NCBI GenBank assembly: GCA_905181715.1
Contig: CAJIYT010000001.1
Location: forward strand, 71 to 64,070
From: an uncultured Candidatus Poseidoniales archaeon
Lineage (GTDB): Archaea; Thermoplasmatota; Poseidoniia; Poseidoniales; Poseidoniaceae
Length of the DNA: 64,000 nt
Direction of reading: 5' to 3'
Below, piece after piece: positions 6,363 to 62,149 of this stretch. Each line of letters opens with the position of its first letter. Position 1 is the first letter of the stretch. Below the pieces are notes generated by a model, which was not told the origin of the DNA, did not search any database, and saw nothing but the letters and a program-made list of their open reading frames with translations. The position numbers and the translations under genes were made by a program.

Positions 6363-6399
6363 GGGCGAGTTTGAAGTGTCTTGTTGCATTGAGTCTACC

Positions 6400-8790: not shown

Positions 8791-8850
8791 TGCAGTGATA
8801 ATATAATCAATACAGGGATGGGTTCTTGAGTATCAGTGCCGCGAAGCGGC

Positions 8851-13521: not shown

Positions 13522-14045
13522 TGCAAATCCCTCACGATGAACAGATTGCTGTCGAACAAGCAGCTAAGAAATATAGTGAATATGTTCAAGATATAGCTGA
13601 AAGAGTTCATCCGTTACGAGTTGCCCTTTCTGGCTTATTATTACTGGTTCTACTTGGTGGTATTGTCAGTACTTGGTACTGGGTTATTCCACGTGATGAT
13701 GTAAGTGTCGAAACCCTGTATTTGCAGCGCTCAGGGCATGTGGTTCTCAGTGAGGTTCACAATGATGGCAGTAGGACGATTACAGATGTTTCTATAATGG
13801 TGCAATTCATAGATCCTCAAGGGGAGATGGTTGATATGTTTTCCGTTTCGATAGGGAATATCTCAAGCCATTCAAGTGTATCAGGAAACGATATGCAATT
13901 GGTGATGATGGGTGTTTCAATCTGGGATAACCATACAGTTCGAATCGACCTTGATTGGACAGATCATTCGGGCCGGGCGCATTCGAAAACCTGGGTTCAC
14001 CCAGTAGGCGAGTGGGTAGTCGAGAAGTTTGTCGACGAGCCCTAA
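13521..14045 (+). CDS. single-pass membrane protein with a small beta-rich ectodomain
   Basis: The ATG overlaps the giant gene's stop (TAATG, 13519-13523) and is preceded by GGTGGTGGG. TM ALSGLLLLVLLGGIVSTWYWVI. The ectodomain pattern VLSEVHNDGSRTITDVSIMVQFIDPQGEMV looks like a small Ig-like/DUF3426-type sandwich (weak call). Confidence 0.65.
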   Translation: MQIPHDEQIAVEQAAKKYSEYVQDIAERVHPLRVALSGLLLLVLLGGIVSTWYWVIPRDDVSVETLYLQRSGHVVLSEVHNDGSRTITDVSIMVQFIDPQGEMVDMFSVSIGNISSHSSVSGNDMQLVMMGVSIWDNHTVRIDLDWTDHSGRAHSKTWVHPVGEWVVEKFVDEP

Positions 14046-14052
14046 GGGCTCG
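14036..14052 (+). terminator. perfect 7-bp hairpin whose loop is the stop codon of the 174-aa gene
   Basis: CGAGCCC-TAA-GGGCTCG read directly in the sequence, followed by GATTTGT. Confidence 0.3.
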
Positions 14053-14099
14053 GATTTGTAATACTACAGCGGACAAGCCCTAAAGCGGATGTGTAATAG
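14039..14099 (+). repeat. imperfect direct repeat, two copies, in the 62-nt spacer before the protease gene
   Basis: GCCCTAAGGGCTCGGATTTGTAATAC (14039-14064) versus GCCCTAAAGCGGATGTGTAATAG (14077-14099). Each copy contains a TATA-like TGTAATA. Confidence 0.45.
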
Positions 14100-14107
14100 C
14101 GCATGTT

Positions 14108-18637: not shown

Positions 18638-18682
18638 CAAATAGTGGACAGACTCTTTAGGTACCGATGCGAGGCACATTAC

Positions 18683-37753: not shown

Positions 37754-37895
37754 CAGTTACCTTGACGAGGGGGGTCATCCTTCAATGCTCGCATGAGATA
37801 ACATTAGTCGGACGGGGTTGTTTTCTAACAACAACCACCGCCACAAGGTTTCTGATTCGATTGATTCAAGTGCTGTGACCCGTCCATTCCCGACC

Positions 37896-40646
37896 ATGCA
37901 GAGGCAGAGGGCCATCGTCATCGCGTCGATGTTGATGCTTCTAATCGCCTTTCCAATCTTGGTACAAGCGGAGGATAGTGGCGGTGTACAGGCTAGTGCA
38001 TCGACCTTGACCTTTTCTGGCGATGCGGTTGAAGGCGGAACAATTATTTTTTATCTGAGCCTACAAAATACAAACCCCACAGAGGCTTCAGGAGTGACTT
38101 ATTCTCTCTATCGAGAGGAGATTTCCTCGGGTTATAGATTGAAAACAGCAGCTATTGATATCGCTGGAGATACGACGGTAACAGTCAATGCGACATGGTC
38201 TCAATTAACCGCAGGCGAGCATCAAATATGGGTCGAATTCAGTAATGGCAATGTACAGACTTTCTATGAGTCTTTTACCGTTGAAGCTTTACCTGATTTA
38301 AAGGTGGTTTCAACGACGTTTGACCCTGTAACTGGAGCAATGAGTGGTGATACAGTTGGGGTTAGTATCGAGATCCAAAATAGCGGTACAGTTAATGCTG
38401 GAACCAGCACTCTGAGCATTGATTTTGCTGGAACTTCCAGTGACCACATCACTCCTGCGATAGATGGACAATCCACCGGGTGGGTAAATGCCACCCTAGT
38501 AGCTCCAAATGCTGGTACATGGCCGGTAGACATTGAATTGGATATCGATGATATGGTGATAGAGTCTGATGATGAGAATGATTATTCCATTGAATATGTA
38601 ATAACTAAACGCATGGATTTGTTCCATCAAGGCGGTGTTACAGTTACCACTACCGAAGGGGCTCTCGATGGCCCTTGGACATTCTCGGGCATTCTTGGAC
38701 GTACAAATGGCCAAGGTAGCGATGAAGTTAGTATGATAATAGAGATTGCCGACTCAAATAGTCTACAACTACAACCATTCGTAGTAAACATCAGCGGAGG
38801 AGAGAATACTGTCAAGCAATGGTCACATATATTGACGAGAGAACAATTATCTCTCAATCCAGCGATCTACCATTTTGAGGTCATAATCAATCCGTTTTCC
38901 GGGGACTCATATACCCAAGAAAACACCAGTAACGATCGTACCTCATCGACTTTGACGATTTTCCAAATCCCAGATGTAGTAGTGGATACAACGGCAATCC
39001 CATCAACTCCAGCAGTCGCCGGTGGCGATAGTTTGACCTGGACCGTAATGCTGGCTAATAATGGTCAAATCGATGTATCAGGCTATATTACCTATACTTG
39101 GGAAAATCAAACATTTGACAGTCCAGAGATGGTTATTTCTGCTGGAGAAAATGGTAAATCATGGACGATTGAATTAGTTGCAGAACCAGGTGAACATACT
39201 GCGAGATTCACAGCCGATTGGATTGAATCGGAAGGTTCTTGGGATGCTATATCGGGTAATTCCCATGCTGAAAATAATGTTAGTGTACTCTCACAATTAC
39301 GTCTAATTTGGTCAGATCTCACTTTTTCATTGGTTGATGAAAGTGGAGAAAGCGTTAATTTGCCTCTGAATAACGGAGAGAATTACACGGTTTCAATCGA
39401 TTTATCATCATTCGATTCAGGTTCGTTAAATTTCACTTGCGGCGACTCAAGCGGTAAAGTATACGCTGTAATTCCGGTTACGGTTACAGCAAGTAATCAA
39501 TGGGTTACTGTCGGTTGCACTTTCACCGCCGATGCCCCAAATTCCGAATTGATGCTGATTCCATCCGATGGTGGGGTCACTACAACAAAAACTTGGAGCT
39601 GGCCTACTGCGCTTCCACTAGGAACAGAAATAGCAGGAAAAGAAGACTATAGTTTTGCTACTGCGATGATAATTCTCTTCATCGCTTTGGTCTTGATTGC
39701 AATATTGATAGTTGCGTTAATCCTCACCAGAGAGAGCGATGGCGAGGTCGATAGGGATATCTTTGATTATTGTCCTGCCTGTGATGGTGAATTAGAAGGC
39801 GATGAAAACCGTTGTCCATCTTGCCGCTTCAATCTCAAGAAGGCGAGAATGCAATTCCATGATTGTGAGGAATGTGCAGAGTTGGTTCCTGACCTGCTCG
39901 ATAATTGTCCATATTGTGGCGTTGCACAAGACACATCAAAGTACTTTGAAAAGCGTGAGCGCTTGGAAATTAAGCAGACTGTAGACCTACCAGACGAAGA
40001 AGAGTTCGATGAAGAAGCAATCGTTTCCGGAACCGAGAACTTTGAACAAGCGGTGCAGGAATTCGGTTATGATGCCGACGATCTCGAGGGCCATTGGGAT
40101 GAGCAACTCGCAGATGCTGAAACTGAGGTTGAAGCTGCTCAAGACCGTCTCGATATAGAAATAGAACAATCTGAACTCGATGATGAGGAGCGTGAAAAGA
40201 TAGTCGAGACCACTCTCAAGAGTATTGAAGACTCATTCTCAGGCAATGATATCGATGCGATATTGTCTGAAAAAGACGAAGTTGTTTCACATGCTGATGA
40301 TGGTGAAGAATTAAGCGCGAGCGATGCTAAAATACGCGGACGCCTGTTCGAAATAACTGGTGAAAAAGGCGTAATGCCCGGCGATAAGGTGAATATTGGT
40401 GGTGCTTCAGAGTCGGTAATGGTCGGCAATGAGGTGCCGACTGAAGCTTTGGATTTCAGTTTCAATGAAGAGCAGGATAAGCCCTTAGAGGACTCCCCCA
40501 GAAAAGCGCCGCGCCGGCGAAGAAATAAGTCTGAAGATGTAGAGGAAGAAGTCGCTGCTGATGAAAAAGCAGAATGTGGAGTTTGTGGCGCGGATCTAGG
40601 CATTGAAGAATTAGAATGCAAAACCTGCGGTGCTAAATTCGAGTGA
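37896..40646 (+). CDS. CARDB-repeat surface protein with a single TM and a 300-aa acidic cytoplasmic tail carrying three Cys4 zinc ribbons
   Basis: Signal MQRQRAIVIASMLMLLIAFPILVQAED (track start 37818 is TTG). CARDB-like endings (ESDDENDY, QENTSNDR). TM FATAMIILFIALVLIAILIVALILT (about 39654-39728). CPAC-x10-CPSC and CEEC-x10-CPYC (39771-39917), then CGVC-x10-CKTC (40575-40628). Confidence 0.8.
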   Translation: MQRQRAIVIASMLMLLIAFPILVQAEDSGGVQASASTLTFSGDAVEGGTIIFYLSLQNTNPTEASGVTYSLYREEISSGYRLKTAAIDIAGDTTVTVNATWSQLTAGEHQIWVEFSNGNVQTFYESFTVEALPDLKVVSTTFDPVTGAMSGDTVGVSIEIQNSGTVNAGTSTLSIDFAGTSSDHITPAIDGQSTGWVNATLVAPNAGTWPVDIELDIDDMVIESDDENDYSIEYVITKRMDLFHQGGVTVTTTEGALDGPWTFSGILGRTNGQGSDEVSMIIEIADSNSLQLQPFVVNISGGENTVKQWSHILTREQLSLNPAIYHFEVIINPFSGDSYTQENTSNDRTSSTLTIFQIPDVVVDTTAIPSTPAVAGGDSLTWTVMLANNGQIDVSGYITYTWENQTFDSPEMVISAGENGKSWTIELVAEPGEHTARFTADWIESEGSWDAISGNSHAENNVSVLSQLRLIWSDLTFSLVDESGESVNLPLNNGENYTVSIDLSSFDSGSLNFTCGDSSGKVYAVIPVTVTASNQWVTVGCTFTADAPNSELMLIPSDGGVTTTKTWSWPTALPLGTEIAGKEDYSFATAMIILFIALVLIAILIVALILTRESDGEVDRDIFDYCPACDGELEGDENRCPSCRFNLKKARMQFHDCEECAELVPDLLDNCPYCGVAQDTSKYFEKRERLEIKQTVDLPDEEEFDEEAIVSGTENFEQAVQEFGYDADDLEGHWDEQLADAETEVEAAQDRLDIEIEQSELDDEEREKIVETTLKSIEDSFSGNDIDAILSEKDEVVSHADDGEELSASDAKIRGRLFEITGEKGVMPGDKVNIGGASESVMVGNEVPTEALDFSFNEEQDKPLEDSPRKAPRRRRNKSEDVEEEVAADEKAECGVCGADLGIEELECKTCGAKFE

Positions 40647-40799: not shown

Positions 40800-41351
40800 A
40801 TGAGGACTAGGTTTGTGATGCCGCTATTGCTGTTATCAGTCCTAATTACACCAATTATCACCGGTTGTATAGGGTTGGTCCCAGCGAGGGAGTTCTTAGA
40901 AGGAATGAGAGATGAACCAAAACCATCCTCAGAAACAGATGAAGTCGTAGTCTCGCATATCTTCACCACTATTTCACCTCAACTCTTCACTCCACCTGCT
41001 GACAACTTCATGGTCGATGAACATGTCACAGAGATCAGTGCTTATCTGTCTGTGCAGAACTTTCTTTCCGAACAAACTGAATTTTTTCCCAATGAGACCA
41101 GATATGTATCGGCAATATTGACTGATTATGCTGGAAACAAAGTTTGGGAGGAAGAGGTTAGTGAAACCAGTACGATACTTGAGACTCAATTACAACCACC
41201 ATTTGCTGAGGGAGAATGGACCTTACAAGTAGAGGCACGTGGATATGGAGAAGAGATTCTTGGTCAGTTTCAAGATACTTTTCACATCGTTATTACAATC
41301 GAGAGATCTTGTACCATCTATCCGCTAGATGAAGGTTGTAGTTACGATTAA
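40800..41351 (+). CDS. putative secreted lipoprotein, unknown function
   Basis: N-terminus MRTRFVMPLLLLSVLITPIITGCIG with a lipobox-like ITGC. No recognisable domain. Confidence 0.55.
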   Translation: MRTRFVMPLLLLSVLITPIITGCIGLVPAREFLEGMRDEPKPSSETDEVVVSHIFTTISPQLFTPPADNFMVDEHVTEISAYLSVQNFLSEQTEFFPNETRYVSAILTDYAGNKVWEEEVSETSTILETQLQPPFAEGEWTLQVEARGYGEEILGQFQDTFHIVITIERSCTIYPLDEGCSYD

Positions 41352-42547
41352 ACATCGAGTAGATTGTCAGGGCAAGCGTGTCTTCGCGAACAACTCTTGC
41401 ACTTCCCTGGACGGTTGTGATTTCTTATCGCCCCGCCTTCTACCATCAGACGTTGAATTTCTTTAATCCCATCTTCCAATATTTCCCGATTATGGTCATC
41501 CCATAGAATTTGATGATTATTATCAGCGCCATAGCTCAGTATTCCAAAAGGAGGAGTCTTCCCTGTTGTCGCTTCTACAAGATGGATGTAGGCCATTATT
41601 TGCATCTTGTGCGAGTAATGAGGCTTGTGCGGCACCTTTCCGGTCTTTTGTTCGACTGGGATGAATTCCCCTTCCATTATGACGATTTGATCTGGTCTAC
41701 CCCGTAAGCCATTATTAGCATCTATCAATAGGCCTTTGTCATTTTCACCATCCGAGTATGCGACCTCGATATTTTCATCTAATCCTGTGTGCGTTCTCGC
41801 TAATTCAGATTCAGTATCAGCCATTAGGACTCTTTGTAATTGCCAAGATGAAATCAATGTCCACAACATTGCTATGGATACGAGTATGAATCCCGCCTGG
41901 GATTTATTTTCTGCTGCTGAAAGTCCAATTGCATTGATGCCGAGAATGATTGCGCCAAGCATAAACCCCGCTTCGACCCGACCTCCTTGGAACCAACCGC
42001 CGCGAAAATTGATTGGTTCGAGAACAGAATCCATCATATTTTCTTGGTATCTTTTCAGTTTTTCTTTGATTACAGTATTTTCATCACTAATTTTTAGCCA
42101 TGAACGCCATGGGAGATAGGTTGCAAGGATGCCAATTATTAACCAAACCAAGGCCAGTAAAGCGAGGTATTTCGCCATATCAACCGGTAATATATTTTGA
42201 TCATCGAGTTTTGTGAAAGCGAAGGCATCGATGATGAAAGCGATGATTACTGCAAACCACCATGACCAGATAACCAGTGCTCGGTTGAGTACTATTTGCT
42301 TGAGTCTATAGCCTTCCATATTGTCATGAATTTCAGCGTGCTTGACCAACCCCGCTTCAATAGCATCCCCTTTGCCCTTGGTTCCAGTACGAGATAGGTG
42401 CCAGGAAAGTGGACAATAGCCATGACGTTCTAGGTCAGAAGCAGAGACATGTAATGCGTGACCATCACTATCACGCCAATAGCCATCATCACTTCTGATT
42501 GCTTTGACTTCGGAACTAGATTTTGTCCCCTGTTCGATAAGTCCCAC
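41348..42547 (-). CDS. Cas4-family PD-(D/E)xK nuclease with a 4Fe-4S Cys signature, interrupted by about 150 aa holding four predicted TM helices
   Basis: GTG start. N-terminal ASDLERHGYCPLSW (Cys45) and GLVKHAEIH. Core GRPD (Asp285), VEQK (Glu299/Lys301) and QIMAY (Gln316/Tyr320). C-terminal CKSC-x5-C (Cys383/386/392). The hydrophobic segments LVIWSWWFAVIIAFIIDAFAF, YLALLALVWLIIGILATYL, GFMLGAIILGINAIGLSAA and GFILVSIAMLWTLISSW map to 41840-42280. Confidence 0.7.
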   Translation of the reverse strand: MGLIEQGTKSSSEVKAIRSDDGYWRDSDGHALHVSASDLERHGYCPLSWHLSRTGTKGKGDAIEAGLVKHAEIHDNMEGYRLKQIVLNRALVIWSWWFAVIIAFIIDAFAFTKLDDQNILPVDMAKYLALLALVWLIIGILATYLPWRSWLKISDENTVIKEKLKRYQENMMDSVLEPINFRGGWFQGGRVEAGFMLGAIILGINAIGLSAAENKSQAGFILVSIAMLWTLISSWQLQRVLMADTESELARTHTGLDENIEVAYSDGENDKGLLIDANNGLRGRPDQIVIMEGEFIPVEQKTGKVPHKPHYSHKMQIMAYIHLVEATTGKTPPFGILSYGADNNHQILWDDHNREILEDGIKEIQRLMVEGGAIRNHNRPGKCKSCSRRHACPDNLLDV

Positions 42548-42587
42548 CCATGTTTAGCAGATGGGGGTCCCGAGATGAACCTTTCCT

Positions 42588-42593
42588 CTATAT
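42588..42593 (-). promoter_or_regulatory. TATA-like ATATAG about 42 nt upstream of the Cas4-like GTG
   Basis: The minus-strand sequence reads GCGATATAGAGG. The distance to the start codon is comparable to the TTTAATAG elements listed below. Confidence 0.3.
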
Positions 42594-42647
42594 CGCATGC
42601 AGCATCACATTTGGGATTCTTTGTAATCATTGATGATTGCGAAGCGA

Positions 42648-42655
42648 TTTAATAG
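42648..42655 (+). promoter_or_regulatory. TATA-like TTTAATAG upstream of rps2
   Basis: 43 nt before ATG 42691, with GAGGA 8-12 nt before the ATG. The same TTTAATAG occurs 40 nt before the ABC ATPase start. Confidence 0.4.
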
Positions 42656-42690
42656 ACGGGACTTGTGGCCGCAGCGCTGAGGATTGAAAT

Positions 42691-43299
42691 ATGACCGAGT
42701 CTAGCGAATTGCTGATCGATCTTGAAACTTATGAGACCCATGCCGTACATATCGGTACTCAACAGAAGAGTGCTGATATGAGCACCTTCATTCAAGAAGT
42801 TCGTTCTGATGGATTATACCTTCTTGATCTAAATATTACCGATTCTAGAATCCGTACTATTGCTAGTTTCATCAACCGTTACAATGTTGCAAATGTTATG
42901 GTTGTATCCGCAAGGCAATACGGACAACGCCCTGCACGCAAATTCTCTGAAGCAGTTGGCGCTAAGTCTGCTGTAGGACGCTTTATTCCTGGCAGTTTGA
43001 CCAACCCGGCTCTTCGCTCATATATTGAGCCAGATATCCTCATGGTTACCGACCCCGCTGCTGATCAACAAGCATTGAGTGAAGCAGTAGATTCTGGTAT
43101 CCCAATAATCGCTATTTGTGATGCAAATAACAATCTTCGCAATGTCGATTTGGTATTACCTGCAAATAACAAGGGTCGCCGTTCACTTGCCCTTATATTC
43201 TGGCTACTTTCAAGAGAAGTTCTCAAACTTCGCGGTGAAACCACCGATGAGGCTTGGGCTGAGGCTAACGATCTCGAAGATTGGGAATCAACTTTCTGA
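42691..43299 (+). CDS. rps2: 30S ribosomal protein uS2 (archaeal type)
   Basis: HIGTQQKSADMSTFI, DGLYLLDLNITDSRIR, PDILMVTDPAADQQALSEA and IPIIAICDANN. Confidence 0.9.
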   Translation: MTESSELLIDLETYETHAVHIGTQQKSADMSTFIQEVRSDGLYLLDLNITDSRIRTIASFINRYNVANVMVVSARQYGQRPARKFSEAVGAKSAVGRFIPGSLTNPALRSYIEPDILMVTDPAADQQALSEAVDSGIPIIAICDANNNLRNVDLVLPANNKGRRSLALIFWLLSREVLKLRGETTDEAWAEANDLEDWESTF

Positions 43300-44307
43300 G
43301 CATCCCTGTTCCAAGTAATTGGTGACAGAAGCAGCAAAGTCTTCTGGTTCAGTGTGCGTATGCATCATCATTCGGACTTTTTTTGCTCCGGGTAACCCCT
43401 TGGTGAAGGCCACAGCATGACGCATCATCCACTTAGGTCTCAACCCGGTGGTTGAATTTGCGATCTCGATATAACGATTCCAACACCATTTACGAGTTTG
43501 AAATATTCTTGTGGTTTCATCACTTGCAAACCAATTGTCATCAGCCCAGGGTAATTCTTCCTGTTGCATCCAGCCAAGACCAACTTTTATTTCAGCAAAG
43601 ACCGAAGGTCTACCGATCGCTCCCCGCCCAATCATCAAACCAGATGCATGAGTCGCTTCAAGACAATCTCGGGCAGATTTAGTATCGAAGACATCCCCAT
43701 TTGCAATAACTGGGACTTCAACAGATGAGACTACATTTGCAATACTATCCCAGTCAGCGATACCCGAATATCTCTGTTTTAGAGTTCGACCATGGACACA
43801 TAACCTCTGGACACCAATTCCTTCGAGGCGAGTCGAAATATCAAGGACAGTGTCTGGACCAGCACCTGTACCCAATCGCATTTTGGCACTGACCGGAGAA
43901 TTAACTTCAGAGATTATCGATTCGGTCATCGCCACCAAATCATCTGCAGTCCCCATCAAGGCAGCACCTGCACAGATCTTGGTTACCTTTGGAGCAGGAC
44001 AACCGAAATTCAAATCGATGATATCTGCAGTTTCATCTAGCATCTTTGCTGCTATGACCATTTCATCTGGATTACCACCAAAAATCTGTGGAATAAATGG
44101 CCTTTCATCGACATGGCTTTCCAATCTAGCCCAAGAGTTCGCAACTTCCCTAGAGAGGGCACTAGAGGAAGTGAATTCGGTTATAGTGACATCTGCCCCG
44201 CATTCGCGAGCTAAGAGACGATATGGTAATTCAGAAACACCAGACATTGGAGCGAGAAAGAGTGACCTTTCTTCACCGTCCCATTCTCCTTTTGCTTTAT
44301 CGATCAC
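43288..44307 (-). CDS. dus: tRNA-dihydrouridine synthase
   Basis: FLAPMSGVSELPYRLLARECGADVTITEF, IIDLNFGCPAPKVTK and LCVHGRT. Confidence 0.88.
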   Translation of the reverse strand: MIDKAKGEWDGEERSLFLAPMSGVSELPYRLLARECGADVTITEFTSSSALSREVANSWARLESHVDERPFIPQIFGGNPDEMVIAAKMLDETADIIDLNFGCPAPKVTKICAGAALMGTADDLVAMTESIISEVNSPVSAKMRLGTGAGPDTVLDISTRLEGIGVQRLCVHGRTLKQRYSGIADWDSIANVVSSVEVPVIANGDVFDTKSARDCLEATHASGLMIGRGAIGRPSVFAEIKVGLGWMQQEELPWADDNWFASDETTRIFQTRKWCWNRYIEIANSTTGLRPKWMMRHAVAFTKGLPGAKKVRMMMHTHTEPEDFAASVTNYLEQGCSES

Positions 44308-45392
44308 GAGAGACTCTCCTCAAGTAGCGCCCCTACCCTCTTCATTCGGCGAGTAATACGGTCGAGGTTGTCTAGTGCCTTCTGTTGTAGTGACTGGGGT
44401 GATTCAGCGGCAAGCCGGTAACCCAAAGCCAATCTCCCACCCAAAAGGTTTAGCAAGAGCATTTGTTTCTGTGAATCTATATCTTTGAGGCGGGCAGATA
44501 CTTTCTCAGGAGTTAATTTGGATTTAGCGAGGTCTTTGAGGATAATTAGTGGAACATCCAAGCGCTCAAAACCACCTTTCAATAACAACCAATCCTCACC
44601 GCGGCGAGAGTATTGAGTTGTCATTGCAGACCATAACGCAGTCGCCAATCTATCTGTACGCGGCACTCTCTCGACCAGCCCAGTGCTGCGAAAGCGTTCC
44701 AGTATCCGGCCCACTCTCGGTTTTGCATCCTTTACCGCTGCTGCTGCTTCATCAATAGAAATCGGTGGACCTGTACTCAGAAGTAATTTGAAAAGTTCGA
44801 TACTTGTCGAACCGGATAGAACTTCTTTTCCCGGTCGTTCTCCTAAGAGTCCTAAATCGTTCATCAATTGCCCTAGAATAGTCCTCTCTTCGGCAAGGGG
44901 GTGCCATTCCTTGATTTGTATGCGAATCCCACCATAATCATCAGCTGGTAATTCTACTGCCATCCTACAGTCGCTACGGCTCCATAACTCTGCAAGTTCT
45001 TCCATACGTTGAAGTAATGACATTCGAGCTATGCTTGCAAACATTTCGAGGGAACGAGAAATCGAACCCCCTTTCAGATGATATTTCCTCCAGCCATTCC
45101 CCGAAGTGTAGGATACAAGCCCTGCTTCGACCAGGCGTGACATATGGTGGTGAATCGCTGCTGGAGTAAGGGCTAATTCTTCAGATAGCATGTGATTGTC
45201 CCATGCTTTTTCTGGGCTGGTAAGAAGGTGATCAGCCAAGATTCTATGGATTGGTTCAGCCAATCCCAAATCAGCGGACGCCTCTCCTTTTCTTCTCAGA
45301 AGGGTGAACGAGTCTACCAACCAGGCGATTAGAGAATCAGTATCTCTCTCGCTCACCGGCAGTGGAATCTCACTGAGCCGAACTTCGAACAT
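44304..45392 (-). CDS. double winged-helix (ArsR-like) transcriptional regulator
   Basis: LSEELALTPAAIHHHMSRLVEAGLVSY plus a second wHTH-like region ISIDEAAAAVKDAKPRVGRILERFRSTGLVERV. The stop overlaps the dus ATG by 4 nt. Confidence 0.65.
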   Translation of the reverse strand: MFEVRLSEIPLPVSERDTDSLIAWLVDSFTLLRRKGEASADLGLAEPIHRILADHLLTSPEKAWDNHMLSEELALTPAAIHHHMSRLVEAGLVSYTSGNGWRKYHLKGGSISRSLEMFASIARMSLLQRMEELAELWSRSDCRMAVELPADDYGGIRIQIKEWHPLAEERTILGQLMNDLGLLGERPGKEVLSGSTSIELFKLLLSTGPPISIDEAAAAVKDAKPRVGRILERFRSTGLVERVPRTDRLATALWSAMTTQYSRRGEDWLLLKGGFERLDVPLIILKDLAKSKLTPEKVSARLKDIDSQKQMLLLNLLGGRLALGYRLAAESPQSLQQKALDNLDRITRRMKRVGALLEESLS

Positions 45393-45465
45393 GAAGATGG
45401 TTATTGGTCAGAAGTCTATCAAGGTGGTGCAACTAATCATTGCTAGAACAGCAAAAAGATGGTGT

Positions 45466-46125
45466 TCAATCGCGGCCATCATTCCATTCGTAGTCAATAG
45501 GACGGGTGGAATTAATGTTTTTGGCCTCTATTAGATATGGTGAAATCTCCAAGCGGTCTTCTCTGATAATACCGCGGCGTCTGAGAACTTTTAGCGCGCT
45601 GTGTACGGTAGCGCGACTCCTGCCAATCCTTCTTGCGAGTGCGGCCTGTGAGCGCGGAATTCCGTTCTCTTGCAAGTCATCGATTATCATGCGTTGAACC
45701 ATCGATAGGCCGATAGGCATGCGCCTAGCTGCCTCTTCTAGGTCGACGAATTGCCCTCGTAAATCGACGATCTGTGCCTGACCTCCGGCAAAATAACAGG
45801 TCCTGCCATTAACTTCAGCTATGGATATTGATCTATGACTTTGTAAGACATCGAGGTGATGGCGTAAGGTTCCGTTTGCGGCCCCCATGGTCGCCTGTAA
45901 TTCTCGATAACAAAGTCCAGGTTTTGCTTCAAGAGTTCGTAAGACTCGAAACCGGAATGGATGCTCAGTTGCAATTACTTTGCTTTTCATTCCTGCTTTT
46001 GATAGACCCATCATGCCAATAGTGGAAACCAAACCACCGGCTAGGCCAACAAATCCACCGGCAGCACCAGCGATGCCAGCACTGATCCAAGGTCGCTGCC
46101 GCGCCCATTGAGCAATCAAAGCCAT
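45466..46125 (-). CDS. membrane-anchored double wHTH regulator
   Basis: N-terminal Gly-zipper hydrophobic segment ISAGIAGAAGGFVGLAGGLVSTIGMMGL. Then RVLRTLEAKPGLCYRELQATMGAANGTLRHHLDVLQ and IPRSQAALARRIGRSRATVHSALKVLRRRGII. Confidence 0.6.
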   Translation of the reverse strand: MALIAQWARQRPWISAGIAGAAGGFVGLAGGLVSTIGMMGLSKAGMKSKVIATEHPFRFRVLRTLEAKPGLCYRELQATMGAANGTLRHHLDVLQSHRSISIAEVNGRTCYFAGGQAQIVDLRGQFVDLEEAARRMPIGLSMVQRMIIDDLQENGIPRSQAALARRIGRSRATVHSALKVLRRRGIIREDRLEISPYLIEAKNINSTRPIDYEWNDGRD

Positions 46126-46171
46126 GAGACTCTCTGAGGTTACTCACATGTCAATGCATCGGCCAGCAGAT

Positions 46172-46633
46172 TCACTTTGTGCGTACTGAACCGTGATGAA
46201 TTTTGAGATGTGCGACCAGTGGTGATAACAACCTGCCACACAGATTGCCGTGTGGACTCAAATGATATACTACTTTGACCGGTGGTCCTTCATCGACTTG
46301 ACGAATCATCATACCTTCCTCGACTAAATAGCGTAATTTATCTGATAATGTACGGCTTGAGATTCCAGTAAGTAGAGATTTCAGCTGATTGAAACGCCTT
46401 GGTCCTGCTATGTACAGAGTTGCTAAAATCTCAGTTGTCCATCTGCTTCCGAATATACGAAGTGCCTCTACTGCGGCTTTAACTTCCCAATCAGTATCCC
46501 AAGGACCCTTGTTCGAGTATTGCTCAAGTATTCCTCTGATCTGCCCACCATTGGAAATAGTGTTTTGGATATGAGTTTCTAAATCAGTGAAATCAGCCTC
46601 TGGTAAGACCATTGGGGGATCTGGCATAGTCAC
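46172..46633 (-). CDS. HxlR-family transcriptional regulator
   Basis: FGSRWTTEILATLYIAGPRRFNQLKSLLTGISSRTLSDKLRYLVEEGMMIRQV...VVYHLSPHG. Confidence 0.8.
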   Translation of the reverse strand: MTMPDPPMVLPEADFTDLETHIQNTISNGGQIRGILEQYSNKGPWDTDWEVKAAVEALRIFGSRWTTEILATLYIAGPRRFNQLKSLLTGISSRTLSDKLRYLVEEGMMIRQVDEGPPVKVVYHLSPHGNLCGRLLSPLVAHLKIHHGSVRTK

Positions 46634-55556: not shown

Positions 55557-56279
55557 ATGGCGCTATTGGAAGTAAGTGATTTGAAGCGCTCTTTTGGCAG
55601 CGGCGATAACCGTCTTGATGTGCTAAAAGGAGTGGACATGTCCATCGAAAGCGGCGAACTAGTCGCATTGATGGGTCCATCTGGATCTGGTAAATCGACT
55701 CTTCTCAATATTATAGGTGGATTGTTACCTGCTGATAGTGGAGTTATAGAACTCGATGGGATGACATATGGACGTAAAGGTCCAGCACAAGTAGTTGATA
55801 TCCGCCGTGAGAAAATCGGATGGATATTTCAGGACTTTCATTTGATTGCACACCTTTCAGCGCTTGATAATGTAGCTCTTGCTCTTGAAATTGCTGGAGT
55901 CACAAGTGCTGAGGCTGAGAAAGCTGCAACATCTGCTCTCGAAAGAGTCGGTTTGTCAGATCGTATTCACCATATACCAGATCAACTGAGTGGGGGTCAG
56001 CAACAGAGGGTTGCAATTGCCAGAGCAATCGCTGGAAGTCGGCCGGTCTTACTCGCCGACGAACCAACGGGCAATCTCGATATTCAGAGTGGTAAAGATG
56101 TTCTAGAATTATTTAGAGAATTATGTCATGATGAGATTAATCCTATATCCATTCTACTAGTTACTCACGATCCAGAACTTGCCAGTAAGGCCGACCGAAT
56201 GCTCTTGCTCAATGATGGTAAGACTGCGGCTAGCAATATCCGCGATGCCTGGGGACTTGATGGAGGGGAAGAGGAATGA
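55557..56279 (+). CDS. ABC transporter ATP-binding protein (MacB/LolD-like)
   Basis: Walker A GPSGSGKST, signature LSGGQQQRVAIARA and Walker B LLADEPTGNLD. Confidence 0.9.
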   Translation: MALLEVSDLKRSFGSGDNRLDVLKGVDMSIESGELVALMGPSGSGKSTLLNIIGGLLPADSGVIELDGMTYGRKGPAQVVDIRREKIGWIFQDFHLIAHLSALDNVALALEIAGVTSAEAEKAATSALERVGLSDRIHHIPDQLSGGQQQRVAIARAIAGSRPVLLADEPTGNLDIQSGKDVLELFRELCHDEINPISILLVTHDPELASKADRMLLLNDGKTAASNIRDAWGLDGGEEE

Positions 56280-59200
56280 GTATCAAGCGTCGTATCCGTG
56301 ACTTCCCAGATAACATGCGTCTTGCTGCAATCAGCTCATGGCGCGGTAGAGAACGTGGATTAGCAGTCTTTGCTGGAGTATTCCTCGCCAGTCTAGTAAT
56401 TACTACGGTATTGTCTTATGGCGTTGGTTTATCTCAGATTTTCTTCCAGGAATCCTTGGAACAAGAGCCCTTTGATGCAAAAATAGAATTTTCTTCTGCA
56501 CCTGCATACAATACTACTGGTTGGTCTAATGACACTTCAGTGATGTCAGGTGTTTGTGATGAATTAGTCGAATGGAAGGAAATAATGGATTGTACGATTG
56601 TCTTTGGTCGGCAAGGAATTCATGGTGGTGGCTTTTTCAATCGGGATTTCGTCGTTGCTCAGCCACTGGTAATGGAGTCAATTACTGCACCTAATCCGTT
56701 ATGGGCTAATATTTCATTCACTTATCCAGAACTAGCAGACAGCGGTCCTCCAATTTCCAATATGAGAGGTATACGTCTTCTTGGCCCAGAAGCATTCGAT
56801 GGAGAAATCAGTGAACGTCTCGGAGTTCAGATTATCAGCGGCATGGGTGAATGGCCAACTCCTGAGGTGATGGAGGAGAAGAGAGGAGTGATTATACCAT
56901 CTAATGTTGCCAGTGAGGCTAAAGCAGAAGTTGGCGATAATTTAGCTGAATTAACTTTCAAGTATACTGTGGATAAAAAGTTAGCAGTTGAAGGGGGATT
57001 CGATGATGATGAATGTGACGGAGACGTAAATTTCGCTGATAATGGTTACATCTATTGCAAGATTCCTATTACTCTTCAAAATCTAACAATCGTTGGAATT
57101 TACGAGCCATGGGATTTGGGTAATCCTACACTTTCCCCTAATCCAATATTTACTATTTATTCAGTTATGGATGTCGAAGATCAAGTGAAATTGATCGATG
57201 CTGATCATATCTATCTCGGTATCACATTAGATCGCACACAGATGCCTACCACTTCGACTGCAGAAGCCGAAGAATGGTTACAGGACCTTGGTGTGCGTAT
57301 TAGTGATAGCACATTCGCCGGTGGAGAAATCGAGTTGTACTACTTCGATATAGTAGGGGGTACAATTATTTTCCTCAATATCTTCCTTGGTTTGATACAG
57401 ACTTTTGATTACATAATCATGATTCCAATTGTAGTTTTATCATTATCTGTTTTGATTTATGGATTGATTTTATCTTTGGAGCAAAGACGTCGTGAAATAA
57501 GTATTCATCGCGTTATAGGAGCCGATTCTAAAGGTTTGCAAGGTATGGTTTTACTGGAATTATCAGTGATGGCCTCAGTTGCTTGGCTTGTAGGATATTT
57601 ACTCGCTTTAGCAGCTGTGCCGCTAGTACTATCCAGTGTTGGATTCATGGCTTTCAAACCCGGAGATATCTCTGTTAACCCAGCATTAGGCGTCGTAGCA
57701 ACTATGGCAACGGCATTCGCAACAGTTGGCTTGGCACTTCTTTTCGGCCGTTCTCGTGCTAGAGACTTTATTGAATTGGAAATAGAAGAAGGAGTACGCA
57801 AAGTCATCGAAGTCAATAAGCCGAAAAGGTGGTTACATTGGTCACTATTCCTCATCGGTCTATTGGGTATGATTGATACTTGGTTAGAAATGAATGGTAG
57901 TGAAGATGGTATTATCTCTAATTTCTTTATTGAAGGCCTAATCAACATATTCGGTCCGTTCATGCTTTGGATTGGTGGAGCACTATTGCTTGCTAGAATC
58001 GGAGCCGCTGGGCCAAAAATCATGCAATTGATATTCGGCAGAACCGCTCTACTCAAGGATGTAAAGCGCGGTCTTCAAGGGTCTGGGTCAACAGAATCAG
58101 TCAATCGGCTAGCAATCATCATGCTTCTCACTCTCTCAATAGTAACCCTTGCAGCAGTGCAGGGATACACCGGGACTTTGGTCGATGAGAGAACAGCGAG
58201 TGCAACGGTCGGATCTGATTTACAGATTACTTTCGAAGAGCCGGTTAACTCGTCTACAGCCTTGTCTATCGTTGAACAAGTCTATGGTTCTGAGGCAACT
58301 TTATTGGCGACAAATATACCATCTCTCACTTTGAGATCTCTGGATAATGGCGATACTTATCAGGCGTGGGTATTGCTTGAAAATGGCGAGGATATCCTTG
58401 ATTGGCCCGAGCAAGCAGTACCTGGAAGTTCGGTCGATACAGCCCTTGAATCATATCAAGATTTGACATTTAGTGCTGGCGAGGATGCAGCATACGCTCT
58501 CAAACTATGGGGTTCAGGGCGCCGCGGTGGAAGTTCAGACTCTGGCGATGAATTACTTGCAGCAGATGATGATCGCTCTGAGGAATTAACCTTGATTTGG
58601 GACGAGATAGAATTCGAAACCAGTACGGATGGAGACGGTGAGGCTCCAAATCTCACCGAGCAACTCGCAGGCTACAAGAGCCTTACTAAAATCGACATGA
58701 GTGGATTAAACCTTTCAGGGCAGAATTTATCAAATCGTGATTTGGGATTGGCAGACTTCACCTCTACCAACCTCACGGGAGCCAATCTCTCGGGGTCTAA
58801 TCTCTCAGAATCATTATTGGTTGGAACTTCATTGAGAGGAGCTAATCTCTCTGGTGCTAATCTTGGGAATGCTATAATTGTCGTAGACGGGGAATCATTC
58901 GGTGACACTGACCTATCGAACGCAAGCCTTACCGGGGCATTCGGGTTCTTTGATTTCAGCAACGCCGCTAGGATTGACGGTGCAACTTGTCCAGATGGCG
59001 ATTCATCGTCAATCTCTTCATGTGTATCCACAAGTATGCCTCCGCCATTGGCATTACCACTACTGAGTGCAGATGTCTCGATTAAAATAACTAATACTGA
59101 GCACAGTATAGATCTGCGCTATATCGGAACACATGAATTCATTCCTGGGGTTTCATCTGTTACTATGTCAAACTCTTTGATAATCGGCGAAAGTTCGTGG

Positions 59201-59830
59201 AGACAATTAATCGGTGAAGATAATTATGTCAATTACACTACAAATGTTTGGATACTCAAAATCGATTCAGTTGAAGGAGAAGAACTTCAGGCTTTGAGAG
59301 CGAATGTCGAAGCAGATTGGCGAGTATCAAGTGCTATGGATTGGTCGACTGAACACGAAAAGGTAGAACGGGATAGCGGTCTGATATTCGGTACTCCTGG
59401 CCTTCTTTCTCTACAATTCGTAGTTGCTAGTCTCGCCGCAGTCGCATCTTCTTTCGTTTTCCTATCCCTGGTGCTTAATCAGAGGAAAAAAGAATTGGCA
59501 ATCCTGCAGGCGATTGGAGCAAGTCCTAGTCAAATAATCAGGCTGGTTTTGTTTGAGATTTTGTCAATCGTAATGGTTTCGATGGCACTTGGTGTTCTGC
59601 TTGGCATGGGCTTGGCTTTAGCATTCAACGGTTTCTTCGGAGTATTCGGTTTCATCTTCCAAATATTCGGTAGTTCAACCGCCACGCCTATCGATAGAGA
59701 TCTGGTTTGGCCATGGTTCGAATTGGGTCTTGTTTCACTCTCGGTATTCATCGCTGTGGTGATGGCATTGTTATTCACCACGAGAAAGGCATTGCGTTCA
59801 GATTTAGCCAGTGTGCTCAAGGGGGAGTGA
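56276..59830 (+). CDS. FtsX/MacB-type ABC permease, single chain with two FtsX modules and two large ectodomains (1,184 aa)
   Basis: ATGA overlap with the ATPase. TM1 LAVFAGVFLASLVITTVLSY. First FtsX block around LEQRRREISIHRVIGADSKGL. Second block around LNQRKKELAILQAIGASPSQII. The C-terminus ends RKALRSDLASVLKGE. Confidence 0.85.
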   Translation: MSIKRRIRDFPDNMRLAAISSWRGRERGLAVFAGVFLASLVITTVLSYGVGLSQIFFQESLEQEPFDAKIEFSSAPAYNTTGWSNDTSVMSGVCDELVEWKEIMDCTIVFGRQGIHGGGFFNRDFVVAQPLVMESITAPNPLWANISFTYPELADSGPPISNMRGIRLLGPEAFDGEISERLGVQIISGMGEWPTPEVMEEKRGVIIPSNVASEAKAEVGDNLAELTFKYTVDKKLAVEGGFDDDECDGDVNFADNGYIYCKIPITLQNLTIVGIYEPWDLGNPTLSPNPIFTIYSVMDVEDQVKLIDADHIYLGITLDRTQMPTTSTAEAEEWLQDLGVRISDSTFAGGEIELYYFDIVGGTIIFLNIFLGLIQTFDYIIMIPIVVLSLSVLIYGLILSLEQRRREISIHRVIGADSKGLQGMVLLELSVMASVAWLVGYLLALAAVPLVLSSVGFMAFKPGDISVNPALGVVATMATAFATVGLALLFGRSRARDFIELEIEEGVRKVIEVNKPKRWLHWSLFLIGLLGMIDTWLEMNGSEDGIISNFFIEGLINIFGPFMLWIGGALLLARIGAAGPKIMQLIFGRTALLKDVKRGLQGSGSTESVNRLAIIMLLTLSIVTLAAVQGYTGTLVDERTASATVGSDLQITFEEPVNSSTALSIVEQVYGSEATLLATNIPSLTLRSLDNGDTYQAWVLLENGEDILDWPEQAVPGSSVDTALESYQDLTFSAGEDAAYALKLWGSGRRGGSSDSGDELLAADDDRSEELTLIWDEIEFETSTDGDGEAPNLTEQLAGYKSLTKIDMSGLNLSGQNLSNRDLGLADFTSTNLTGANLSGSNLSESLLVGTSLRGANLSGANLGNAIIVVDGESFGDTDLSNASLTGAFGFFDFSNAARIDGATCPDGDSSSISSCVSTSMPPPLALPLLSADVSIKITNTEHSIDLRYIGTHEFIPGVSSVTMSNSLIIGESSWRQLIGEDNYVNYTTNVWILKIDSVEGEELQALRANVEADWRVSSAMDWSTEHEKVERDSGLIFGTPGLLSLQFVVASLAAVASSFVFLSLVLNQRKKELAILQAIGASPSQIIRLVLFEILSIVMVSMALGVLLGMGLALAFNGFFGVFGFIFQIFGSSTATPIDRDLVWPWFELGLVSLSVFIAVVMALLFTTRKALRSDLASVLKGE
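58697..58990 (+). other. pentapeptide-repeat segment inside the second ectodomain of the permease
   Basis: MSGLNLSGQNLSNRDLGLADFTSTNLTGANLSGSNLSESLLVGTSLRGANLSGANLGNA...DLSNASLTGAFGFFDFSNAARIDGA. This follows the A(D/N)LxX periodicity and carries many N-x-S/T sequons. Confidence 0.75.
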
Positions 59831-61269: not shown

Positions 61270-61318
61270 GGTCTTGGCATCAAGCGCTCATTGATGACTT
61301 ATTCGGCCTCAATTTGAA

Positions 61319-62149
61319 ATGGCGAAGCATGTTCGCTGGTACGTGGTCGAACCTCTCAGTCTACCCAGTTTCCCGCCAATCAATGCATGGGACGCGTATA
61401 TCCTCTTCCTTTTGGTACCTATGCTGATGAGGCTGATTTTACTTAGCAGGCCATTTATCAGAGTCACTAAACAATTGGCACCACATGGAGGATGGTTCTT
61501 CAAACGCCTGAAGGAATTGCCGATAAGAGGAATGGGACTGCTCGCCTTTAACGAGGTTTTAGCATTCTTTTTACCGATGCTTTTGGTTTTGGTATTACGT
61601 TTGGTATCAGACCCACTCGGCTGGCAGACTTGGGATGAGACACCGGTTTTGGGATTGGTTTTGATAATCCTCGCTGGATTGCTATGGGTTGGCTTAGATC
61701 TTCTCAGAATAGCGCGGATAAGGCGCATGCTTTCGGCAATCGAGAAGCAGAATATCGAACGATTGCGCAAAGCAGCCGATGCTGGCTTAGGTGCACGTGG
61801 TTGGCTACGTCGCTTTGCCCGCAAGGATAAGGTGGAAGAGGAAGACGAGGACAGTTCGGTTTCTCGTGTAGCAAAAGGAGCATTGGCTACATGGGGGTTA
61901 AGGGTACTCAAAGCAAGAAAATTCACCCCAGCAGGACTAGTTTCTGCAGTGGCCACTGGTGCAGCAATCGAGGTTGCTCGTATGGGTGCTGACAAGGTTT
62001 CAGATATGATTGATGATAAAATGCAACATGAATTTGAGAAGATCGCTGAGACCAATTCAACAACTCTCCTCTTTTTGTTTATGCGTGATTTAGCCATGGG
62101 TATTATTCCGATACTCATTCTGTGGAGCACCCCCCTTATCACTGGATAG
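61319..62149 (+). CDS. membrane protein of unknown function
   Basis: Plausible TM helices (AYILFLLVPMLMRLILL, LLAFNEVLAFFLPMLLVLVL, VLGLVLIILAGLLWVGLDLL, LLFLFMRDLAMGIIPILILW) flank a charged central region. It is co-oriented with the downstream gpmA. A mirror ORF on the minus strand was judged a shadow ORF. Confidence 0.6.
   Translation: MAKHVRWYVVEPLSLPSFPPINAWDAYILFLLVPMLMRLILLSRPFIRVTKQLAPHGGWFFKRLKELPIRGMGLLAFNEVLAFFLPMLLVLVLRLVSDPLGWQTWDETPVLGLVLIILAGLLWVGLDLLRIARIRRMLSAIEKQNIERLRKAADAGLGARGWLRRFARKDKVEEEDEDSSVSRVAKGALATWGLRVLKARKFTPAGLVSAVATGAAIEVARMGADKVSDMIDDKMQHEFEKIAETNSTTLLFLFMRDLAMGIIPILILWSTPLITG

Follow-up and report, generated by a model that had tools for sequence, protein, structure and literature searches.

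Introduction

Cas4 proteins are known as small soluble enzymes of clustered regularly interspaced short palindromic repeats (CRISPR) adaptation. Genes of the same family located outside cas loci, termed solo-Cas4, evolve vertically and have been proposed to act in repair or defence, in no characterised genomic context (Hudaiberdiev et al. 2017, PMC5704561). One such gene, found at positions 41348–42547 (minus strand) of a 64,000-nucleotide stretch of DNA from an uncultured Candidatus Poseidoniales archaeon (assembly GCA_905181715.1, contig CAJIYT010000001.1, positions 71 to 64,070; the whole stretch is hereafter called the window), is the subject of this work. Sequence comparison and structure prediction support well the view that its product is a membrane-embedded variant of solo-Cas4. 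Solo-Cas4 proteins as such were already known; what is apparently undescribed is a membrane hairpin module within the Cas4 nuclease domain, by which a whole solo-Cas4 lineage is predicted to consist of integral membrane proteins. It is judged on balance probable that the gene encodes a catalytically competent, membrane-integral, CRISPR-independent solo-Cas4 of the PD-(D/E)xK, iron–sulfur (Fe–S) type with a role in the maintenance of chromosomal DNA.

The window protein resembles the surveyed solo-Cas4 proteins in its Cas4/DUF83 assignment, its four cysteines and PD-(D/E)xK motif, its location away from cas genes and its vertical transmission along order-level lineages; like them, the family occurs commonly in archaea, without an established function (PMC5704561). 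Outside cas loci, mainly vertical inheritance is the mark of solo-Cas4, and the window gene shows order-wide synteny, with no viral copies found in IMG/VR. Unlike in the surveyed proteins, however, the domain is interrupted in this family by 2, 4 or about 8 predicted transmembrane (TM) helices. The word "transmembrane" is absent from the text of the survey, and its single "membrane" belongs to an unrelated gene name in a figure legend (PMC5704561). No description of a TM-inserted Cas4 was found in the open-access full-text literature, absence from which is not proof.

The nearest experimentally studied solo-Cas4 from a euryarchaeon is M. mazei Solo-Cas4 (MM_RS04560), which carries a [4Fe-4S] cluster, forms an oligomer of ~318 kDa, most likely a decamer, and is a Mn2+/Mg2+-dependent DNase (Rentz et al. 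2025, PMC12501428). The Cas4 protein SSO0001 is a decameric toroid (PMC12501428). Peptides decoded from the mutagenesis primers of the M. mazei protein (LKGSPSKIVCFEGANVPSIIRPG; FGFVEYVSFGII) are colinear with LRGRPDQIVIMEGEFIPVEQKTG (motifs II–III) and FGILSYG (the FG..Y strand) of the window protein. The spacing between the N-terminal cysteine and motif II is 134 in the M. mazei protein, 127–138 in relatives of the window protein with two inserted helices (2-TM relatives) and 68 in SSO0001. These sequence likenesses are a lead only to a possible link between M. mazei Solo-Cas4 and the 2-TM forms. The M. mazei protein differs from the window protein in its degenerate RecB motif, whose D, E and K are replaced by S156, I169 and R171, and it was purified in soluble form; no membrane segment is mentioned in PMC12501428.

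The fold of the window protein is also common to the nuclease domains of AddB, AdnAB, RecB, Dna2 and MGME1, and PDDEXK_1, a profile of this group, is matched above threshold. The Fe–S "staple" linking N- and C-terminal cysteines, a feature of AddB, AdnAB and Dna2, is predicted for the window protein as well. Unlike the AddB, RecB and Dna2 types, the window protein appears to be a stand-alone membrane protein without a fused helicase: Pfam detected no helicase domain in it and none adjoining it in the window, and a gene for the XPB helicase lies near a relative only in Methermicoccus. Tethering to the membrane is a feature of the competence nucleases EndA (Streptococcus pneumoniae) and NucA (Bacillus subtilis), which act on DNA at the cell boundary. 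The folds of these enzymes are unrelated to Cas4, their one anchor is N-terminal and their catalytic domain lies outside the cytoplasm, whereas the nuclease domain of the window protein is by prediction on the cytoplasmic side and divided by the membrane segments.

A Cas4 Nuclease Domain Encoded in Two Segments

The gene (taken from the list of open reading frames, ORFs) and the parts of its product are listed below; helix assignments combine Kyte–Doolittle hydropathy with an AlphaFold2 (AF2) model.

41348–42547, minus strand: whole gene of the predicted membrane-inserted Cas4-family nuclease, 399 aa (stop codon 41348–41350; GTG start)
42296–42460, minus strand: N-terminal nuclease segment, residues 30–84, with SASDLERHGYC45PLSW (putative first Fe–S ligand) and G66xxxH70 (metal-site His)
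42212–42286, minus strand: predicted TM helix 1 (TM1), residues ~88–112 (Kyte–Doolittle maximum 2.18; AF2 helix 61–113, running on from the His70 helix)
42110–42181, minus strand: predicted TM helix 2 (TM2), residues ~123–146 (Kyte–Doolittle maximum 2.37; AF2 helix 121–144; conserved L128 and W135)
41978–42109, minus strand: predicted cytoplasmic loop between the hairpins, residues 147–190, rich in lysine and arginine (K/R) and partly disordered (from the K/R count and model confidence)
41915–41977, minus strand: predicted TM helix 3 (TM3), residues ~191–211 (Kyte–Doolittle maximum 1.86; AF2 helix 189–211)
41828–41896, minus strand: predicted TM helix 4 (TM4), residues ~218–240 (Kyte–Doolittle maximum 1.61; AF2 helix 215–254; conserved A226, W229, S234 and L237)
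41351–41815, minus strand: C-terminal nuclease core, residues 245–399 (Pfam matches, AF2 beta strands 261–348, Foldseek)
41645–41692, minus strand: catalytic motifs II and III, GRPD286 ... E299-Q-K301 (conserved; aligned to the D...ExK of Cas4 4r5q, 4ic1 and 8d3l)
41588–41602, minus strand: QxxxY motif, Q316-I-M-A-Y320 (conserved in the family alignment)
41372–41401, minus strand: putative C-terminal Fe–S ligands, C383-x2-C386-x5-C392 (invariant; aligned to the CxxCx5C of Cas4 4r5q and 8d3l)

The Cas4 hallmarks occur in the canonical order: YCPLSW (residues 44–49), G66xxxH70, GRPD (283–286), VEQK (298–301), QIMAY (316–320) and CKSCSRRHAC (383–392). Positions 45, 383, 386 and 392 are the only cysteines of the protein. 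To follow their conservation, 108 non-redundant full-length relatives from three homologue searches, sharing 26–98% identity with the window protein, were aligned. Nine residues (C45, G66, H70, D286, K301, Y320, C383, C386 and C392) were invariant, position 299 was E or D in all 108 sequences and Q316 was kept in 103, with a conserved RNHxRxGKCxxCSRRxxC block around the C-terminal cysteines; a signal of this strength lies well outside what chance would produce. Since the catalytic and cluster residues have all been maintained, an active enzyme is favoured and an exapted scaffold disfavoured; judged from these residues, the window protein is probably catalytically active. Near-identical proteins in public data (99% identity) likewise have 399 aa, a relative from a Thalassarchaeaceae metagenome-assembled genome shares 87% identity, and more than 1,100 relatives were found among 5.8 billion clustered proteins. 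On the strength of the Thalassarchaeaceae match, the window most likely belongs to Marine Group IIb.

The Pfam profile Cas_Cas4 (PF01930) gave 39.5 bits against a cutoff of 22.7 (E 7.7e-10), with residues ~265–393 aligned to positions 47–158 of the 160 in the profile, and it was matched by 105 of the 108 family members. PDDEXK_1 (PF12705; 38.7 bits, cutoff 22) was likewise confined to residues ~265–393. The NCBIfam equivalog model of cas4, TIGR00372, gave 57.6 bits, under its trusted cutoff of 65, and 60.1 bits, still under it, after in-silico excision of the insertion. A sequence search of the PDB found Cas4 Pcal_0546 (4r5q), with D...ExK and CxxCx5C aligned. In PADLOC-DB v2, residues ~245–393 matched only generic Cas4, Cas4-Cas1 and DruK nuclease domains; no system-specific defence model with partner genes was matched, and the neighbouring genes matched through helix-turn-helix (HTH) domains only. 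Neither Pfam nor NCBIfam holds a full-length model covering the membrane-inserted architecture. Public databases name the relatives in generic or misleading terms ("Dna2/Cas4 domain-containing protein", "CRISPR-associated protein Cas4", "PD-(D/E)XK nuclease family protein", "hypothetical protein").

An AF2 model made with a shallow alignment of 13 sequences was unusable, with a predicted local distance difference test (pLDDT) value of 52.5, and was replaced by a model from the 108-sequence alignment (pLDDT 83.5, predicted template modelling score 0.76). Local pLDDT in the latter was 92–97 over residues 21–60 and mostly 88–98 over residues 271–390, and beta strands of the nuclease core were placed within residues 261–348. 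The top Foldseek match in the PDB was Cas4 8d3l_J (8d3l_I was found too), with an E-value of 1.5e-4, a probability of 1.00 and a TM-score to the target of 0.52 over 158 columns. Cas4 7mi5_A was matched with a root-mean-square deviation of 2.1 Å over 119 columns, and AdnAB, Dna2 and MGME1 followed. Among viral models, Foldseek returned Cas4-like and PD-(D/E)XK nucleases, several of them in alignments of 385–393 columns running from the N-terminal piece to the C-terminus.

That the two nuclease segments belong to one domain is indicated, besides the AF2 model and its Foldseek matches, by three comparisons. In the family profile, the N-terminal segment aligned with residues 54–108 of Cas4 4r5q and 12–61 of 8d3l_I, with Cys and His in register; the N-terminal stretches are weak alone yet colinear, and the C-terminal part aligned to the rest of the Cas4 structures. 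In the 2-TM relatives the PDDEXK_1 match (profile 2–247) covered the entire protein. Deletion of residues 85–244 in silico gave an uninterrupted match to the Cas4 part of NF049935 (profile 3–189) and raised the score from 29.8 to 35.8 bits. The protein itself lacks a compact, contiguous soluble Cas4 domain of ~160–220 residues: its core is separated from the His70 helix by ~160 residues that include four hydrophobic helices. In the assembled domain, as predicted by homology and by the model, Cys45 would join Cys383, Cys386 and Cys392 around one Fe–S cluster.

The Cas4 proteins of CRISPR adaptation (8d3l, 7mi4/7mi5, 4ic1, 4r5q) are the best structural and sequence matches of the window protein and share with it D...ExK, QxxxY, the N-terminal Cys with CxxCx5C and the metal-site His. 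The window protein differs from them in its sub-cutoff TIGR00372 score, in having no Cas1, Cas2 or CRISPR context in the material covered here and in being predicted to be membrane-embedded. Between the metal-site His and the motif II Asp lie 215 residues (His70–Asp286), compared with 36 (His62–Asp99) in SSO0001 (PMC12501428).

Predicted Topology of the Membrane Insertion

Kyte–Doolittle values of 1.5–2.4 over 19 residues were exceeded in four segments (residues 84–116, 119–149, 191–213 and 216–237). Together they span nucleotides ~41828–42286. In the AF2 model, TM1 is a continuation of the His70 helix and TM4 passes directly into the core. The outer loops, TM1–TM2 and TM3–TM4, have mean lengths of 7.6 and 5.4 residues and 0.5–0.6 K/R in the 108 sequences, whereas the segments before TM1, in the centre and after TM4 carry 2.7–4.5 K/R. 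The central loop has 8 K/R in the window protein (family mean 4.5), and its pLDDT falls below 50 at residues 168–187. Such K/R-poor short loops between K/R-rich flanks fit the positive-inside rule and therefore point to an N-in/C-in topology with the nuclease in the cytoplasm. A cytoplasmic location is required by an Fe–S enzyme.

The second hairpin (TM3–TM4) is homologous to the first (TM1–TM2) according to hhalign (94.9%, E 4.3e-8), a result to be read with some caution, as comparisons between TM segments may be inflated. L128 and W135 of TM2 are kept in at least 86% of the 108 sequences. The TM helices are largely apolar across the family, and the polar D107, E192 and Q236 are conserved in about 27–44% of the sequences (29–47 sequences). 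Searches with the insertion gave only weak matches to assorted integral-membrane Pfam families (among them MFS, EccD and DUF5883) and to TM hairpin proteins of de-novo design. As many unrelated membrane families were matched weakly, the similarity is regarded as compositional and of membrane type. Derivation of the insertion from Pfam DUF2101 was considered after one relative matched this family and was rejected: just 2 of the 108 members match it, and this similarity too is compositional.

These results agree with most of what had been proposed in a sequence-only reading of the window. The ORF and every motif quoted there were recovered, and four hydrophobic helices, placed there at 41840–42280, were found by hydropathy within almost the same limits. 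The PD-(D/E)xK/Cas4 fold was borne out by the model, by Foldseek and by the Pfam scores above cutoff, and the assignment of the N-terminal Cys/His piece to the nuclease by its register with 4r5q and 8d3l, the full-length PDDEXK_1 match in 2-TM relatives and the single-stretch match restored by excision. Hydropathy, the positive-inside pattern, the matches to membrane families and the even helix numbers (below) likewise favour its membrane-type insertion over a buried soluble core.

Inserted Helices in the Wider Family

In an exhaustive HMMER search, 1,086 of 1.84 billion cluster representatives were matched. Among the best 150 of these were 59 full-length clusters at 50% identity with an N-terminal Cys, GRPD and a C-terminal CxxCx5C, and helices between the N-terminal Cys and GRPD were counted by crude hydropathy. 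Two inserted helices were counted in 16 clusters, four in 30 and eight in 7; among the rest, four clusters had 7 or 9 (read as ~8), one had a single helix and one was an ordinary soluble form. A membrane hairpin module is thus present in one, two or about four copies inside the nuclease domain. With an even number of helices, both halves of the domain would lie on the same side of the membrane. A neighbour-joining tree of the core domain addressed the monophyly of the TM-bearing forms, with only two soluble sequences taking part.

The named members come from Candidatus Poseidoniaceae, Thalassarchaeaceae, Poseidoniales, Poseidoniia, Methanomassiliicoccales, "Thermoplasmata archaeon" and Thermoplasmatales ex4484_6, and 2-TM forms occur in two methanogens available in culture, Methermicoccus shengliensis (WP_052353351.1) and Methanofollis formosanus (WP_220682637.1). 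A search of the IMG/VR viral contigs with family-specific motifs recovered no relative. A viral or mobile origin of the gene was rejected on this result together with the core-like synteny described below.

Genomic Context

The two features immediately upstream of the gene are as follows.

42548–42690, strand not applicable: divergent intergenic region shared with rps2, 143 bp, presumed promoter region (from gene coordinates)
42691–43299, plus strand: rpS2 (Pfam Ribosomal_S2), divergent neighbour of the Cas4 gene

Downstream, a gene for a small protein of 183 aa with a lipobox-like N-terminus (...ITGCIG) and no Pfam or PADLOC match (40800–41351, plus strand) lies tail-to-tail with the Cas4 gene, the stop codons overlapping in TTAA at 41348–41351. 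Beyond it, at 37818–40646 (plus strand), lies a gene whose product of 942 aa has a CARDB ectodomain at the N-terminus, a single TM helix and, on the cytoplasmic side, a tail with double zinc ribbons and a long acidic region.

The loci of 80 species-representative Poseidoniales were compared with the window's own neighbours only. The small downstream gene was present in all 80, the divergent rpS2 in 78, the CARDB protein in 77 and Dus in 70. The Poseidoniales arrangement is therefore core-genome synteny and not a defence island, and the gene is single-copy, vertically inherited and set amid housekeeping genes. Gene content was inspected at ten further loci of nine other lineages, and no cas or defence neighbours were seen there among the called genes. 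An 18-mer array scan of 93 related loci (1.27 Mb) revealed no CRISPR-like array; the sole array-like region flagged (L088, 10817–11049, period 30 nt) proved to be a pentapeptide-repeat coding sequence near an integrase gene.

Within the 64 kb of the window, Tandem Repeats Finder, direct-repeat and Rfam scans detected one trivial tandem repeat, no direct-repeat families and no Rfam matches. No cas gene was found among the 31 of 37 window ORFs of at least 150 aa (coding strand) that were scanned against Pfam or PADLOC, with 12 ORFs at 22.1–35.1 kb not scanned. The scanned ORFs are of housekeeping or surface type and encode glutamate synthase, NADH-dehydrogenase chain 3, rpS2, Dus, fatty-acid oxidation enzymes, glycosyltransferases, ABC transporters and giant PKD/CARDB/subtilase proteins.

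The neighbours of the relatives change from lineage to lineage but are likewise of housekeeping type. In Methanomassiliicoccales they are TPD and GlmS/GlmU. At two of these loci (L081, 5165–5950; L082, 5781–5927) the 4-TM relative is preceded at ~50–70 bp, on the same strand, by the gene of a TPD-motif protein (PF14811), which might be its operon partner in Methanomassiliicoccales only. Relatives with eight helices adjoin rpL15e in two separate Thermoplasmata lineages (L089, 5386–7791; L090, 5001–7126), as the window gene adjoins rpS2. The 2-TM form of Poseidoniia is found with NTPase, Trm1, RpoL and TruD genes, and thiamine and purine genes adjoin relatives in other lineages. In Methanofollis, the 2-TM relative shares 4 nt at its start with an RNase HI gene, as seen on two independent contigs (L083, 7576–8825, Methanofollis formosanus; L084, 112–1361, a Logan contig), and the pair looks like a two-gene operon linked to RNA–DNA hybrid processing. 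In Methermicoccus shengliensis (L085, 4144–10944), the 2-TM relative lies ~0.9 kb upstream, on the same strand, of genes for XPB, Bax1 (DUF790) and then the PolD small subunit. No operon partner conserved across orders was found among these sets (rpS2/Dus, TPD/GlmS, rpL15e, NTPase/Trm1, RNase HI and XPB-Bax1).

The sequence-only reading had noted the lack of a CRISPR-Cas context, and the scans of the window, of the 93 loci and of the ten inspected loci gave the same picture. It had named a lipoprotein gene and rps2 as neighbours; rps2 was confirmed by its Ribosomal_S2 match, while the "lipoprotein" has a lipobox-like N-terminus only and belongs to no matched family. It had also treated the feature as a singular oddity. 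The phyletic and neighbourhood comparisons show instead one member of a large conserved family.

Proposed Role and Alternative Explanations

In the proposed mechanism, two homologous hairpins (TM1–2 and TM3–4) would interrupt the domain behind the His70 helix and ahead of the first core strand, which bears Asp286, and both nuclease halves would reassemble on the cytoplasmic side into one Cas4 fold. The active site would lie only a few helical turns away from the inner face of the membrane, the distance from His70 to the start of TM1 being estimated at ~18 helical residues. By analogy with characterised Cas4 proteins, the enzyme may cut DNA in a Mn2+/Mg2+-dependent manner, most likely at single-stranded ends or overhangs. 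The constitutive tether would restrict the nuclease to DNA ends reaching the membrane, and its role at the membrane would lie in the processing of ends, in repair or in clearance, and not in immunity. DNA maintenance is favoured over immunity because the gene behaves as a core gene and occasionally has neighbours from repair or replication; this preference is the weakest step of the argument. The sequence-only reading had suggested action on DNA at the membrane, in uptake, defence or repair, a suggestion that stays speculative.

Several points weigh against this explanation. Because no operon partner is shared across orders, the genomic context says little about the pathway, and the repair-type neighbours, present in two lineages only, could be there by chance. 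The sub-cutoff TIGR00372 score means that details of activity are not simply transferable from CRISPR Cas4. Convergence of the four cysteines is deduced from homology and model confidence, and the TM segments are predicted from hydropathy, the positive-inside rule and AF2 helices; all members are known here from sequences and models alone. Furthermore, a plain anchor needs one TM helix. The conserved hairpins of 2, 4 or ~8 helices suggest more than tethering, and this is left unaccounted for by a DNA-maintenance nuclease that is simply anchored.

In the foremost alternative, the protein is a gatekeeper or defence nuclease tethered at the entry site of foreign linear DNA (virus genomes, plasmids), whose exposed ends it degrades. 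Activation might then occur by membrane perturbation through the continuous helices leading to His70. Cas4-family enzymes do act on DNA ends, an uncharacterised role of solo-Cas4 in repair or defence has been proposed (PMC5704561), the AF2 model joins the active site rigidly to TM1 and TM4, and the membrane part is conserved beyond the needs of anchoring. Nevertheless, this explanation is regarded as unlikely: the gene sits in conserved core synteny instead of variable defence islands, its single-copy vertical inheritance is atypical of most defence genes, the called genes of the nine other lineages include no defence or restriction-modification neighbours, and PADLOC recognises the generic Cas4 domain only. 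A conduit for DNA, in which a ring oligomer would line a pore with its TM hairpins above a nuclease ring and serve DNA uptake or export (transformation, nutrition, DNA exchange), would explain the expansion of hairpins in blocks of 2, 4 and ~8 TM helices and the conservation of Trp and small residues within TM2 and TM4. It is also in line with the toroidal SSO0001 and the ~318 kDa, most likely decameric, M. mazei protein (PMC12501428). It is considered very improbable, as the external loops of just 5–10 residues leave no DNA-binding ectodomain, no pilus, competence or ATPase partner genes were nearby in any lineage inspected, and the TM helices are largely apolar, their polar residues being poorly conserved. 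A broader idea makes the hairpin module more than a passive anchor: it might transmit the condition of the membrane to the active site by way of the continuous His70–TM1 and TM4–core helices, or form, in a Cas4-like ring oligomer, a pore over the nuclease ring. Such a membrane-gated or channel-coupled Fe–S nuclease is quite doubtful; if true, archaea would handle DNA at the cell boundary by a route not recognised before, encoded by a core gene of some of the most abundant ocean archaea.

The remaining alternatives dispute the membrane, the genetic independence or the activity of the protein. AF2 models no membrane and shows long helices only, so the hydrophobic helices could in principle form a soluble bundle or oligomerisation core of a cytosolic Cas4 with a large insertion. 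This is highly improbable in view of the four segments of 21–25 residues at Kyte–Doolittle 1.6–2.4, the charge segregation following the positive-inside rule across 108 sequences, the weak matches found only to integral-membrane families and designed TM hairpins, and the even helix numbers across variants (the crude counts of 7 and 9 being read as ~8). Scarcely any probability is given to an adaptation Cas4 that is encoded apart from its cas locus and trims prespacers for Cas1-Cas2 in trans. Databases do name relatives "CRISPR-associated exonuclease Cas4" and the closest solved structures are adaptation proteins, but neither the 64 kb of the window nor the 93 loci contain an array, no cas gene appeared among the scanned window ORFs or the called genes at the ten loci, TIGR00372 stays below cutoff with and without the insertion, and a membrane tether fits poorly with a chromosomal Cas4-Cas1-Cas2 complex. 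Hardly more credible than that is an inactivated structural derivative, comparable to the TTV1 nucleocapsid protein and acting as a membrane or DNA-binding scaffold only. Exaptation of Cas4 for non-catalytic roles has been reported (PMC4625639), and M. mazei solo-Cas4 lacks the RecB motif; against this stands the retention of catalytic and cluster residues in all 108 sequences down to 26% identity, apart from the E/D exchange at position 299 and the five sequences without Q316.

The preferred explanation, a membrane-integral solo-Cas4 nuclease of DNA maintenance, concerns a gene kept in single copy and in synteny across Poseidoniales (the Marine Group II, which ranks with the most abundant planktonic archaea) as well as Methanomassiliicoccales, other Thermoplasmata and some methanogens. 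If active at the membrane, the protein would point to an unstudied DNA transaction at the inner face of the archaeal membrane, be it repair, clearance, uptake or exclusion. The "CRISPR-associated Cas4" labels in databases are likely misleading for genome interpretation. The cultured carriers, Methanofollis formosanus and Methermicoccus shengliensis, make direct testing feasible.

Other Features of the Window

Beyond rpS2, three tandem winged-HTH regulators (IclR/ArsR/MarR/HxlR-like) are encoded at 44304–46633 (minus strand). They matched Csa3 and CasR in PADLOC through their HTH parts only, and such matches do not speak for CRISPR signalling. At 6376–21550 (plus strand) lies a cluster of genes for giant proteins of secreted or surface type, which includes an 804-aa PKD protein, a 1509-aa protein with subtilase S8 and CARDB, a 968-aa Ig-like protein and, at 8836–13521, a 1561-aa protein without any Pfam match. 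At the far end of the window, two near-coextensive ORFs of ~277 aa lie on opposite strands (61309–62142, minus strand, without a Pfam match; 61319–62149, plus strand). An FtsX-type permease of 1184 aa with pentapeptide repeats is encoded at 56276–59830 (plus strand), between two ABC ATPase genes.

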